IMG/VR virus record: IMGVR_UViG_2531839474_000007
Coordinates: 1-24,423 of that record
Reading direction: 5' to 3' (one strand)
From: a virus
Taxonomy: Duplodnaviria; Heunggongvirae; Uroviricota; Caudoviricetes
DNA: 24,423 nt
Shown: positions 776 through 11,336 of the stretch, in pieces
Numbering within the stretch: the first letter of the stretch is position 1
Layout of the letters: the number at the start of each line of letters is the position of its first letter
The notes under the pieces: generated by a model
What the model was told of the DNA's origin: nothing
Databases searched by the model: none
Seen by the model: only the letters and a program-made list of their open reading frames with translations
Position numbers and translations under genes: made by a program

Positions 776-1380
776 CCTCGTTTAAAAAATATTGTTATTG
801 TTAAAGAATTCTTTTATTTTGCTATCAGGTATTTGTCTTACTTGGCTTTCTGTTCTTGGTTTAACTGATGCTATGAAAATAAGGAAGTCAAATGCGACAA
901 GAGAAATAATCCACAACCAAAGATTAATTAAAGAGCCAGTAACAGAGAATATATTTGTTAATTTGGCGATACTTATTATTAAAATAGTAACAAATGCGAT
1001 TACTGTATGTTCAAAGAAAACCCAAAAGTAATAAACTTTGTTCCAGAAAAGTTCAACGTAATGTTTGTCTTTTAACTCTTTAACTTCTGGGTAATACAGT
1101 TTACTCATTACCTTGTGAGATTCATCAGTAGTTAATTTTCTCGTAACGCCTGCAATTTTTGCTAATGGTTTAATAATTAAATGACTATCCCACATCTTCC
1201 TTATTCCAATAATTTTTGCTACATTATTATGTAGATCTAAAGCTCCACTAATTACTGACCAAAAAACTGAAGATGCAATTGGTAATATGCCAAAGGTTAA
1301 TATCCATTTAATAAATTCCTCGTAGTCTTTAACGGGGGTGAACCGCCCCGGTTTTCCTGGAGAGTGTTTTATCTGTGAAC

Positions 1381-2268
1381 TCAGGCTGCCAGATCATCGT
1401 TTCTGATGGAAGCATAATAAGCTTTTTCTGCTTCTGCCGGAGGGATATGACCCAGCCTTCCCAGCAATCGTCGATTGTTATACCAGTCCACCCACGTGAG
1501 TGTGGCCAGTTCCACTTCTGCACGGTTTTTCCAGCTCTTACGGTGTATTACCTCCGCTTTGTAAAGACCATTGATGCTCTCCGCCATCGCGTTGTCATAC
1601 GAGTCACCTGTACTCCCTGTTGATGCCAGCAGTTTTGCTTCTTTTAGTCGCTCCGTATAGGCCAGTGATACATACTGAGAACCTTTATCACTGTGATGGA
1701 CTGTGCCGGACGGCCGACGGGCCCACAACGCCTGCTCCAGTGCATCCAGCACGAATGTCGTTTCCATAGACGATGAGACTCGCCACCCCACGATACATCC
1801 GGCAAACACATCAATGATGAACGCCACATAGACGAAGCCCTGCCATGTGCTGACGTAAGTAAAATCAGCCACCCACAGCTGGTCAGGACGTTCTGCCACG
1901 AACTGACGGTTTACGCGGTCGCCTGCGGAAACGGCTTTCCGGCTGACGGTAGTACGGACCTTTTTACCCCGGAGAACACCGGCAAGTCCCATAACCGCCA
2001 TGAGGCGCGCCACTGTACATCTGGCCACCCTGATACCTTCGCGTAACAACTGGCGCCAGACTTTACGCACACCGTACACCTGATGATTTTCATCGTATAC
2101 GCGCTGTATCTCTCTCTTCAGCCAGTCATCGCGCTGAGCACGGGCACTGCGTTTATCAGGATGATGTCGCTGTTGCTGACAGTGGTAATACGTTGACGGG
2201 GCAATATGCAGTTCACTGCATACCGGTCCGACCCCGTACTGCTCACGCAGCTTATCCAGCAGCGGCAT
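1381..2268 (-). CDS. IS629 OrfB transposase (DDE/integrase catalytic region)
   Basis: 295-aa ORF identical to the copy-2 OrfB; -1 frame relative to orfA. Confidence 0.9.
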   Translation of the reverse strand: MPLLDKLREQYGVGPVCSELHIAPSTYYHCQQQRHHPDKRSARAQRDDWLKREIQRVYDENHQVYGVRKVWRQLLREGIRVARCTVARLMAVMGLAGVLRGKKVRTTVSRKAVSAGDRVNRQFVAERPDQLWVADFTYVSTWQGFVYVAFIIDVFAGCIVGWRVSSSMETTFVLDALEQALWARRPSGTVHHSDKGSQYVSLAYTERLKEAKLLASTGSTGDSYDNAMAESINGLYKAEVIHRKSWKNRAEVELATLTWVDWYNNRRLLGRLGHIPPAEAEKAYYASIRNDDLAA

Positions 2269-2594
2269 TATTTTTTCCAGAGGCGGTCGAACTCCGCCTT
2301 CGCAAAATAAGCGGAAGCCTGGCGAAGGATATCGTTACTGCGGCGCAGTTCACGATTTTCACGTTCCAGCTCTTTCAGACGCTGACGTTCAGCGGTGGTG
2401 AGTCCACCATCACCACTCCCGGTATCCCGCTCATGCTGACGAACCCACACACGCAGAGTCTCTGGTGTACAGCCAATCTTTGGGGCAATGGAACAAATTG
2501 CCGCCCATTGTGAGTCATATTCGCCCTGACTTTCCAGAACCATACGAACTGCCCGTTGACGGACCTCGGGGGAAAAACGTGTATTTTTAGTCAT
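2268..2594 (-). CDS. IS629 OrfA (HTH DNA-binding transposase subunit)
   Basis: 108-aa [22 protein letters not shown]... with C-terminal leucine-zipper-like region; ends in the A6 tract where IS3-family -1 frameshifting occurs. Confidence 0.9.
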
Positions 2595-3374
2595 CCTGTT
2601 TACCTCTTTCTCAGGGAGTTTAGTCTCCAGGATTCCCGGGGCGGTTCAGGGGGGATATACTTGGCATTAATGCCAACCAATGGCATGTAGCCATAAATGA
2701 CTAATGATAGGTAAAATATAAATGTAGTAATAAAAGTCGCCTTATGGAGCATAGGCAACATTTCATTATAACTCTTTGGTGGTTCTAACATTTTACTCTC
2801 CAAACACTCAAAAAAAAGCTAATCTTCTATAATAACGAAATTCAGCTGGCACAATTAAAGATTAATTGCCACCAATTTCTTGATTTTATAATTTTATCTA
2901 AATGTTTTTGATTAATCTAGTCCTAAAAGAAACCTACTGCATAAATATTTATGCTGATGACCCACTCCCTGTTCGTTAACACATAGCAACGTTAGTAATG
3001 CATCCTAAGTGATCAATATTTTTGCTAGCTTCATCTGCTCGCTCAAAGGGAACTATAATGTTGGCTTGCGTGTGACTTGGCATGTTTAAAGAAGTGCTGG
3101 TGGTGACTGGTTGCTGTTTTCCATTTCCACAGAACAAAATCATAGAAACTATACCCAGTAGTTGTATTGAATCACTGACGAGACAGCCTCATATTTATCA
3201 GGACTGGTGTACGTCCAATACAGGAGGTTGTGGTGCTGGTTCTCAAATGTGCGCTGGCTATTGCTGCTGTAATGGCAATTTATTGTCTTGCTGTTGTTCT
3301 TATGGATCACCTTTCTGATTGATTTCATATTGGCGAGGTAACGGTAGTTAAGTAGAATTGCTGCGGGTGCTTGA

Positions 3375-3412
3375 GGCTATCTGCCTCGGGCATCAACACC
3401 AAAGGCAGATAG
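3375..3412 (+). promoter_or_regulatory. perfect 10-bp inverted repeat (CTATCTGCCT ... AGGCAGATAG) in the hok/mok leader; presumed mRNA structural element
   Basis: Hairpin read directly; no T-run on either strand so not an obvious terminator; lies where hok mRNA 5' regulatory structures and the antisense sok gene are expected. Confidence 0.35.
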
Positions 3413-10015: not shown

Positions 10016-10078
10016 TAAAAAAAGTGAACCGCCCCGGGAATCCTGGAGACTAAACTCCCTGAGAAAGAGGTAAACAGG

Positions 10079-10405
10079 ATGACTAAAAATACACGTTTTT
10101 CCCCCGAGGTCCGTCAACGGGCAGTTCGTATGGTTCTGGAAAGTCAGGGCGAATATGACTCACAATGGGCGGCAATTTGTTCCATTGCCCCAAAGATTGG
10201 CTGTACACCAGAGACTCTGCGTGTGTGGGTTCGTCAGCATGAGCGGGATACCGGGAGTGGTGATGGTGGACTCACCACCGCTGAACGTCAGCGTCTGAAA
10301 GAGCTGGAACGTGAAAATCGTGAACTGCGCCGCAGTAACGATATCCTTCGCCAGGCTTCCGCTTATTTTGCGAAGGCGGAGTTCGACCGCCTCTGGAAAA
10401 AATAA
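10079..10405 (+). CDS. IS629 OrfA
   Basis: 108 aa, identical to copy 1 OrfA. Confidence 0.9.
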
Positions 10406-11292
10406 TGCCGCTGCTGGATAAGCTGCGTGAGCAGTACGGGGTCGGACCGGTATGCAGTGAACTGCATATTGCCCCGTCAACGTATTACCACTGTCAGCAA
10501 CAGCGACATCATCCTGATAAACGCAGTGCCCGTGCTCAGCGCGATGACTGGCTGAAGAGAGAGATACAGCGCGTATACGATGAAAATCATCAGGTGTACG
10601 GTGTGCGTAAAGTCTGGCGCCAGTTGTTACGCGAAGGTATCAGGGTGGCCAGATGTACAGTGGCGCGCCTCATGGCGGTTATGGGACTTGCCGGTGTTCT
10701 CCGGGGTAAAAAGGTCCGTACTACCGTCAGCCGGAAAGCCGTTTCCGCAGGCGACCGCGTAAACCGTCAGTTCGTGGCAGAACGTCCTGACCAGCTGTGG
10801 GTGGCTGATTTTACTTACGTCAGCACATGGCAGGGCTTCGTCTATGTGGCGTTCATCATTGATGTGTTTGCCGGATGTATCGTGGGGTGGCGAGTCTCAT
10901 CGTCTATGGAAACGACATTCGTGCTGGATGCACTGGAGCAGGCGTTGTGGGCCCGTCGGCCGTCCGGCACAGTCCATCACAGTGATAAAGGTTCTCAGTA
11001 TGTATCACTGGCCTATACGGAGCGACTAAAAGAAGCAAAACTGCTGGCATCAACAGGGAGTACAGGTGACTCGTATGACAACGCGATGGCGGAGAGCATC
11101 AATGGTCTTTACAAAGCGGAGGTAATACACCGTAAGAGCTGGAAAAACCGTGCAGAAGTGGAACTGGCCACACTCACGTGGGTGGACTGGTATAACAATC
11201 GACGATTGCTGGGAAGGCTGGGTCATATCCCTCCGGCAGAAGCAGAAAAAGCTTATTATGCTTCCATCAGAAACGATGATCTGGCAGCCTGA
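10405..11292 (+). CDS. IS629 OrfB transposase
   Basis: 295 aa, identical to copy 1 OrfB; -1 frame relative to orfA with an A6 slippery tract at the overlap. Confidence 0.9.
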   Translation: MPLLDKLREQYGVGPVCSELHIAPSTYYHCQQQRHHPDKRSARAQRDDWLKREIQRVYDENHQVYGVRKVWRQLLREGIRVARCTVARLMAVMGLAGVLRGKKVRTTVSRKAVSAGDRVNRQFVAERPDQLWVADFTYVSTWQGFVYVAFIIDVFAGCIVGWRVSSSMETTFVLDALEQALWARRPSGTVHHSDKGSQYVSLAYTERLKEAKLLASTGSTGDSYDNAMAESINGLYKAEVIHRKSWKNRAEVELATLTWVDWYNNRRLLGRLGHIPPAEAEKAYYASIRNDDLAA

Positions 11293-11336
11293 GTTCACAG
11301 ATAAAACACTCTCCAGGAAAACCGGGGCGGTTCAAA

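Follow-up and report, generated by a model that had tools for sequence, protein, structure and literature searches.

Known IS629 insertions and the pair in the window

IS629, a common E. coli mobile element with the isoforms IS1203 and IS3411, has been catalogued in EHEC O157:H7 and in non-O157 strains as a 1310-bp element with orfA and orfB, a -1 frameshift, an ALIL pseudoknot, TG...CA ends, target duplications of 3-4 bp and a location in lambda-like prophages (Rump et al. 2011; PMC3271280). In O157, prophages are its usual home, with 62% of the copies (PMC3271280). The late operons of Stx and lambda-like prophages have also received it, between Q or the late promoter and the lysis genes: examples are Sakai Sp5, with the element downstream of stx2, and FRIK1275, with stx2::IS629; the stx2::IS629 phage is still made in functional form (PMC7430833). 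Rearrangement adjoining IS629 is seen in this region in O157:H7 TR01 (NZ_CP033605.1, about 1.186-1.192 Mb), which has the prophage module and IS family considered here; there, the lysis cassette is inverted, and the IS629 at its junction lacks a duplication (gat/tta) and has flanks that map to opposite strands. Finally, composites of the Tn10/Tn5 type carry the same IS twice, in inverted orientation, bracketing a segment of DNA.

The window, as we call the whole stretch of 24,423 nucleotides analysed here, shares features with each of these. A repeat search of the window returned a single inverted pair, 1339-2648 on the minus strand (copy 1) and 10025-11334 on the plus strand (copy 2), with 1310 nt per arm, 100% complementarity and a spacing of 7,376 nt between the arms. 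String comparison of the arms makes copy 1 the exact reverse complement of copy 2, so that the identity proposed in the sequence-only reading, made where the copies had been compared, now extends to the full length without a single difference, and its estimate of 7.4 kb for the bracketed DNA is equally confirmed. A perfect repeat of this length cannot be chance. Each arm is an intact IS629 of the IS3 family. In copy 2, orfA (10079-10405, plus strand) encodes 108 aa with an HTH_Tnp_1 match (Pfam, 1.4e-12), and orfB (10405-11292, plus strand), in the -1 frame relative to orfA, encodes 295 aa with an rve match (Pfam, 1.1e-25); a slippery A6 run (10397-10402) lies on the same strand at the overlap of the two frames. 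The corresponding frames of copy 1 occupy 2268-2594 (orfA) and 1381-2268 (orfB) on the minus strand. The ALIL pseudoknot scores 120.9 bits (Rfam) in both copies alike, at 2197-2313 on the minus strand and at 10360-10476 on the plus strand. The ends are of the TG...CA type (TGAACC...GGTTCA), and the imperfect terminal inverted repeats are identical at 22 of the first 25 positions (TGAACCGCCCCGG). The length of about 1.3 kb, the two frames with their -1 frameshift signal, the terminal repeats and a target duplication of 3-4 bp are together those of the IS3 family. O103:H2 12009, O145:H28 RM13514 and others carry copies, annotated as IS3-family transposase, to which the 1310-bp element is 100% identical, and 617 records reach 99% or more in their best match; the name IS629 is taken from these annotated identical copies and from the published description (PMC3271280). 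The IS629-type copies of the closest prophage relatives, on the other hand, belong to other subtypes, with 94.6-97.4% identity. The element itself shows no difference from the catalogued IS629; all that is peculiar to this strain is the pair of sites at which it inserted.

Target duplications, empty sites and the bracketed block

Three near-identical prophages, PE164, MEI003 and ECO2947 (L001-L003), have both sites without an IS and served as empty-site references, which take the duplications beyond a mere 3-bp match. At copy 1 the junctions read ...aacGGGGG-IS-GGGGGGatata, and the empty site in the three relatives is aacGGGGGGGatata, with a run of seven G; the window thus has G5 plus G6, that is G11 against G7, an excess of exactly 4 bp (GGGG). 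The alignments of the two flanks to relative L002 overlap by the same 4 bp (L002 4242-4245), placing the duplication at 1335-1338 on the left and 2649-2652 on the right. The "matching G-runs" described earlier are hereby sharpened into a 4-bp duplication. At copy 2 the junctions read ...aaaaaAAG-IS-AAGagcc and the empty site in the same relatives is ataaaaaaaGagcc; against ...taaaaaaaGagcc the window has exactly 3 bp more (AAG, at 10022-10024 on the left and 11335-11337 on the right), in agreement with the clean AAG/AAG duplication first reported. Further IS629-type insertions were mapped in relatives, with the IS orientation taken from the RefSeq annotation, and in seven of the nine a clean 3-bp duplication can be placed on the window. 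Any lean of these insertions towards the direction of the late operon is confounded by the way in which hits were chosen.

The bracketed block (2649-10024, plus strand; 7,376 bp) is in its ancestral orientation, as deduced from alignment to the three relatives. It carries hok/sok, a Rem-like gene, a DUF968 gene (ydfU), rusA, Q, the tRNAs Ile(CAT), Arg and Arg, a TerB pseudogene, DUF3927, STnc100 and nanS-p. Domain and RNA matches bear out the hok, ydfU, rusA, Q, tRNA and nanS-p content proposed from sequence, the tRNAs being three; hok is a HOK_GEF match accompanied by the sok RNA, and nanS-p an esterase with SASA, DUF1737 and DUF6645 matches. With the TerB pseudogene and DUF3927 at the position of stx, the prophage is a non-Stx one. 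The block is 99.90-99.95% identical to its counterparts in the three relatives, collinear and on the same strand, and the same collinearity and strand hold for flanks and block taken together (99.8-99.9% identity). The flanks are therefore unexchanged by comparison with IS-free relatives, exchanged flanks being the sign that had been named as speaking against the initial account.

Because each copy is flanked by a duplication of its own and the block keeps both the order and the strand of the relatives, two simple insertions without net inversion are indicated, as had been argued at the outset. Overall, we consider it very probable that IS629 inserted twice, separately and simply, into a non-Stx lambda-like E. 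coli prophage, and that no net recombination has followed. Members of the IS3 family move by copy-out-paste-in: a -1 frameshift yields the OrfAB transposase, which turns a copy of the element into a circle, and this is then inserted at a staggered cut in the target. The donor copy stays in place, so that copies within one genome tend to be identical. Judging from the family, both IS629 would have arrived by this route, through a circular copy. On this account, one entered the G7 run within a 231-aa gene, giving rise to the 4-bp duplication, and the other entered 9 nt after the nanS-p stop, giving rise to the 3-bp duplication; after both events the Q-tRNA-nanS-p block still faces the lysis and head genes.

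Assembly, inversion and composite origin weighed against two insertions

Among the alternatives, the one that survives best, though we hold it unlikely, is that the junctions are real but the block orientation, the identity of the copies, or both, were imposed by the assembly, the strain itself carrying the inverted isomer or a mixture. The source of the window is scaffold JH659573.1 of the draft assembly GCA_000261145.1, so that both the orientation of the block and the lack of any difference between the copies hinge on the assembler's handling of a 1.3-kb repeat. That repeats troubled this assembly is suggested by a gap of 1,910 N at window position 1, which falls within another insertion sequence, IS1414. 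Moreover, the layout gives either isomer the same four IS-flank junction sequences, so that short reads cannot tell the two orientations apart. Both sites may have been filled by the assembler with one repeat consensus. Yet the window holds no N and both IS629 copies lie within one continuous stretch, the given orientation agrees with all the relatives and pairs the duplications correctly, and the pairing of the duplications across each copy is independent of the assembler's resolution of the repeat. Two simple insertions, in any case, stand as the conclusion under either isomer.

Less probable still is an active invertible segment, in which the block flips repeatedly by recombination between the copies and the assembly happens to show the ancestral orientation. 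That the pair is still a substrate for inversion, as first suggested, may reasonably be inferred from what is generally known of recombination: perfect inverted repeats of 1.3 kb are good substrates for homologous recombination, and RecA-dependent exchange between them, 7.4 kb apart, could flip the block. The case for actual flipping draws on this repeat geometry and on the one IS629-associated inversion in the neighbouring O157:H7 cassette, where the IS at the junction is without a duplication. Here, unlike in TR01, both copies retain matched duplications and nothing is inverted; the mismatched duplications across the repeats that are the hallmark of an invertible segment are absent, and the block is ancestral. 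In the inverted form, moreover, Q and the late promoter would no longer be connected to the lysis and head genes, with no evident benefit. A search of 5,426 complete E. coli genomes found neither a join of the methyltransferase-side flank to an IS at the copy 1 site nor a single-piece match for the copy 2 junction; as neither insertion occurs elsewhere in that set, the relatives cannot show the inverted isomer. Some hits, in chicken isolates, take in the IS together with about 220 bp of the flank on the hok side. The best-matching entry of the phage collection aligns over 43% of the window with 94% identity and lacks an IS. Inversions in an even number would go unnoticed, as would a mixed population. 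We regard it as highly improbable that, in part of the population, a flip-flop turns the block with Q, the late promoter, the tRNAs and nanS-p away from the lysis and head genes; if true, induced cells could express the block without lysis, a step toward prophage domestication.

The remaining alternative, that the entire 1339-11334 unit arrived in one piece as a composite transposon of two IS629 and their cargo, is suggested by two intact copies of one IS bracketing 7.4 kb, but is rejected, as next to impossible, by the empty-site duplications and the collinearity: the outer flanks have no duplication in common (left GGGG, right AAG), each IS having its own and none surrounding the whole unit, and the supposed cargo is not foreign to the locus but the native late-regulatory region of the prophage, found at its usual position with its usual order and matched at 99.9% identity by relatives without the IS. 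It differs in both respects from the Tn10/Tn5 type. In addition, IS3-family copy-out-paste-in requires a left-right end junction, and both outer ends here are right-hand IS termini, with no left-right pair, which again sets the locus apart from that type.

Consequences of the two insertions

Under the preferred history of two separate insertions, the visible consequences differ between the two sites. Copy 1 splits a 231-aa gene, which is intact in the relatives (WP_000892866.1; L002 3689-4384, minus strand). Comparison with the intact gene places the C-terminal part at 782-1338 on the minus strand and the N-terminal 48 codons at 2649-2791 on the same strand, from where the frame reads into the IS as a 63-aa chimeric ORF that ends at 2600. 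One accessory gene is thus inactivated. Searches of the 231-aa gene gave no Pfam match and no PADLOC match. The methyltransferase neighbour was called mad2 by PADLOC at 3.2e-4, a marginal score that we distrust and set aside.

Copy 2, which runs in the same direction as the late operon, lies between nanS-p, whose stop codon is 9 nt away, and the holin gene (11776-11982) downstream, adding 1.3 kb of DNA within the late transcript. Given that the stx2::IS629 phage is still functional (PMC7430833), a copy in the late operon need not stop downstream expression. Between nanS-p and holin, 170-260 genomes carry IS629-type elements, which occupy several distinct positions. As in Sakai Sp5 and FRIK1275, the element lies between Q or the late promoter and the lysis genes; the window prophage differs in being without stx, and the precise point of insertion, 9 nt from the end of nanS-p, is unseen elsewhere.

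The locus is already known biology, an instance of ordinary prophage decay and not a new system. It provides a clean textbook case of an insertion history read from target duplications and empty sites, with little weight beyond annotation. The orientation of a segment between a 1.3-kb inverted pair is beyond short-read assemblies, and such a locus should be treated cautiously in draft genomes. Insertion sequences are building up in the prophage, with three within 12 kb if the IS1414 at the edge of the window is included, and the strain-specific IS629 sites are useful as typing markers.

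The inverted IS629 pair

A repeat search found a single long repeat in the whole window, an inverted pair at 1339-2648 (minus strand; copy 1) and 10025-11334 (plus strand; copy 2), whose 1310-nt arms are 100% complementary and lie 7,376 nt apart. Reverse-complemented, copy 1 equals copy 2 in a direct string comparison, and no N bases occur in the window; thus the coordinates, orientation and identity of two IS629 copies, as proposed in a sequence-only reading, were all right, and differences between the copies were looked for over their full length and none found. Each arm is in structure a complete IS3-family element: orfA (108 aa; HTH_Tnp_1, 1.4e-12) is followed in the -1 frame, with a one-base overlap, by orfB (295 aa; rve, 1.1e-25, with HTH_21 and rve_3 matches). 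The overlap falls on an A6 run (10397-10402 in copy 2) and is spanned by a full-length Rfam match to ALIL, the frameshift pseudoknot of the IS3 family (120.9 bits in both copies; gathering score 50). The ends, TGAACCGCCCCGG... and ...CCGGGGCGGTTCA, agree at 22 of their first 25 positions. Elements 100% identical over the 1310 bp are found in O103:H2 12009, O145:H28 RM13514/RM12581 and other strains, and 4,253 of 5,426 complete E. coli genomes contain related IS copies. Identity to the IS629/IS1203 copies of the closest prophage relatives is 94.6-97.4%, which fits the 4-5% separating published IS629 subtypes (PMC3271280).

Insertion history

The prophages most like the window are ECO2947 (99.8% identity), PE164, E105 and MEI003; PE164, MEI003 and ECO2947 were fetched for an empty-site comparison, and both target sites are empty in all three. 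At the copy 1 site the relatives carry aacGGGGGGGatata (G7) and the window G5, the IS and G6, so that the "matching G-runs" noticed earlier amount to a 4-bp duplication, GGGG. At the copy 2 site the relatives' ataaaaaaaGagcc corresponds to ...aaaaaAAG, the IS and AAGagcc, and the clean AAG/AAG duplication already seen there adds 3 bp to the empty site. Both lengths fall within the 3-4 bp published for IS629 target duplications (PMC3271280). In BLAST, window 94-1338, 2649-10024 and 11334 onward all align on the same strand with the three IS-free loci (99.8-99.95% identity), the alignment overlaps at the IS sites being exactly the duplicated bases. These collinear alignments place the 7.4-kb block in its ancestral orientation, with the two halves of each original target still on either side of the IS that split it, and they exclude any odd number of past inversions by exchange between the IS copies. 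No exchanged flanks are seen in the window. Our findings therefore support two independent simple insertions, as first proposed, and uphold the case against a past inversion. The 10-kb unit did not come in as one composite transposon, since its outer flanks differ (GGGG vs AAG) and its "cargo" is native prophage DNA.

As a control, nine further IS629-type elements from related prophages were mapped onto the window. In seven the 3-bp duplication is clean and the flanks can be located there: TAT (11432-34), AAC (11483-85), GAG (11507-09), CAT (11542-44), GAG (13442-44), CGA (9805-07) and CAG (8963-65). Inside the holin gene, a second IS629 of the O157:H7 TR01 prophage has the duplication GTA; an exact position was obtained for just one of its flanks. 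The left IS (IS629/IS1203) of TR01 (NZ_CP033605.1) is the exception: it has no target duplication, and its flanks, gat and tta, fall on opposite strands of the window (11449, plus; 14948, minus). In this prophage the segment from holin to ylcI, the lysis cassette (window 11460-14949), stands in inverted orientation (L012, the TR01 locus, 10125-17049); the other junction joins window 11460 to 15050, without IS and with ~100 bp missing. TR01 thus exemplifies exchanged flanks, whereas the window copies show none. One might speculate that two inverted copies recombined there and one was then lost imprecisely. The same junction geometry is common to at least the 15 top-ranked records of the nanS-p end/IS629 search, most labelled O157.

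In the 5,426 complete E. coli genomes the copy 1 site is never occupied by an IS: a flank-IS-flank query returned no locus covering ≥80% of it and none with its left flank joined to the IS. Neither orientation isomer is thus present elsewhere in this set. An IS629-type element lies somewhere between nanS-p and the holin/lysis genes in 170 genomes, and the nanS-p end and IS629 left end are within joining distance in 260; the exact copy 2 junction occurs in 0 of these 260, the best matches being two-piece with the IS 112 bp further on. With neither junction found in complete genomes, both insertions are specific to the source strain. Yet the ~450-bp stretch from nanS-p stop to holin start (window 10016-10024, 11335-11775) has repeatedly received IS629-type elements, with insertions after window 10024, 11434, 11449, 11485, 11509 and 11544 in different strains, a count of six biased by its origin in few loci (L001, L004, L006, L007 and L012) chosen for an IS there. 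Several genomes, mostly chicken isolates, carry an IS629-type element within ~1.7 kb of a ~220-bp stretch resembling the flank on the hok side (window about 2649-3248), which suggests further insertions near hok in other prophages.

Neighbouring genes

Copy 1 breaks a 231-aa gene (WP_000892866.1 in relatives) after codon 48; this gene, without Pfam or PADLOC match, adjoins a minus-strand class I SAM-dependent methyltransferase, and the two gave no convincing defence match. Upstream of the window past the gap at its left end, a SMEK-domain protein (1809-2708 of L002, one of the IS-free loci) matches PADLOC Aga_REase-PNTD1-PNTD2 over its N-terminal 140 residues (1.4e-20) and may be a defence-related accessory gene. 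An Rfam sok antitoxin RNA (3365-3539, plus strand, 114 bits) adjoins hok.

Copy 2 begins 9 nt past the nanS-p stop codon, in the direction of the late operon, with Q and the tRNAs (6835-7084) on one side and the holin gene (11776-11982) on the other. We would not expect it to block downstream expression, since the stx2::IS629 prophage of O157:H7 FRIK1275 still expresses downstream genes and makes plaque-forming phage (PMC7430833). No toxin genes are found in this prophage: stx is absent, its position (window about 7258-7850, between the tRNAs and nanS-p) being taken by a TerB-family pseudogene (internal stop in relatives) and a DUF3927 ORF. ARAGORN calls the tRNA at 6835-6910 tRNA-Met (anticodon CAT), while RefSeq gives tRNA-Ile for the same gene in relatives, implying a lysidine-modified CAT; two tRNA-Arg genes (TCG, TCT) follow. 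The sRNA STnc100 matches just upstream of nanS-p (7855-8027, plus strand, 100.8 bits). Further on, the S49 peptidase/scaffold gene (19673-21028) encodes 451 aa vs 501 aa in relatives, 150 bp being lost in frame between two imperfect 20-bp direct repeats, gaagcgaaaggacgtgaaca (breakpoint 20648-20667); either a genuine loss of one repeat unit or a collapse in assembly may explain this.

Assembly, orientation and transposition

The 63-aa chimeric product of the interrupted gene is on record from one contig, scaffold JH659573.1 (750,787 bp; GCA_000261145.1), which agrees with the window at each of the 12,791 bases compared. A scaffold gap of 1,910 N borders window position 1. Window 1-93 matches none of the relatives' prophages and is bounded by the octamer TAATAATT (94-101), which also precedes the far-side sequence past the gap, itself 99-100% identical to IS1414, an IS256-family element (L008, a locus reaching beyond the gap). 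A third, assembler-unresolved IS thus lies 1.2 kb left of copy 1, between the SMEK-domain and methyltransferase genes and flanked by an 8-bp duplication, TAATAATT; window 1-93 is its terminal part, and the left edge of the window is therefore an assembly gap within a repeat. Since the two isomers have the same four IS-flank junction sequences, orientation can be fixed only by reads or mate pairs that cross an IS completely, and in a draft assembly one repeat consensus could fill both sites. The present non-inverted state and the lack of differences between copies are hence only as good as the assembly; the two simple insertions are independent of its repeat resolution.

The transposition route of the IS3 family is established from IS911, IS2 and IS3, and intact transposase genes, frameshift signal and ends are present in both copies, at two separate target sites each with a duplication of the right length. 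By this route a -1 frameshift would yield OrfAB, end-to-end transfer of one strand and replication would give a circular IS copy, and the circle would insert into a target cut with a 3-4-bp stagger, leaving the donor copy in place. Such copy-making transposition accounts for identical copies within one genome. RecA-dependent exchange could in principle occur between perfect 1.3-kb inverted repeats 7.4 kb apart; its product would have Q, the late promoter, the tRNAs and nanS-p facing the early region, leaving the lysis and head genes without promoter. That the late-regulatory block serves as a recombination flip-flop is very improbable. Overall, the finding is real, and the pair represents ordinary biology that is already known: EHEC-type E. 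coli carries IS629 as its commonest IS, mostly in prophages (62% of the copies in four O157:H7 genomes; PMC3271280), and the window copies likewise reside in a prophage.
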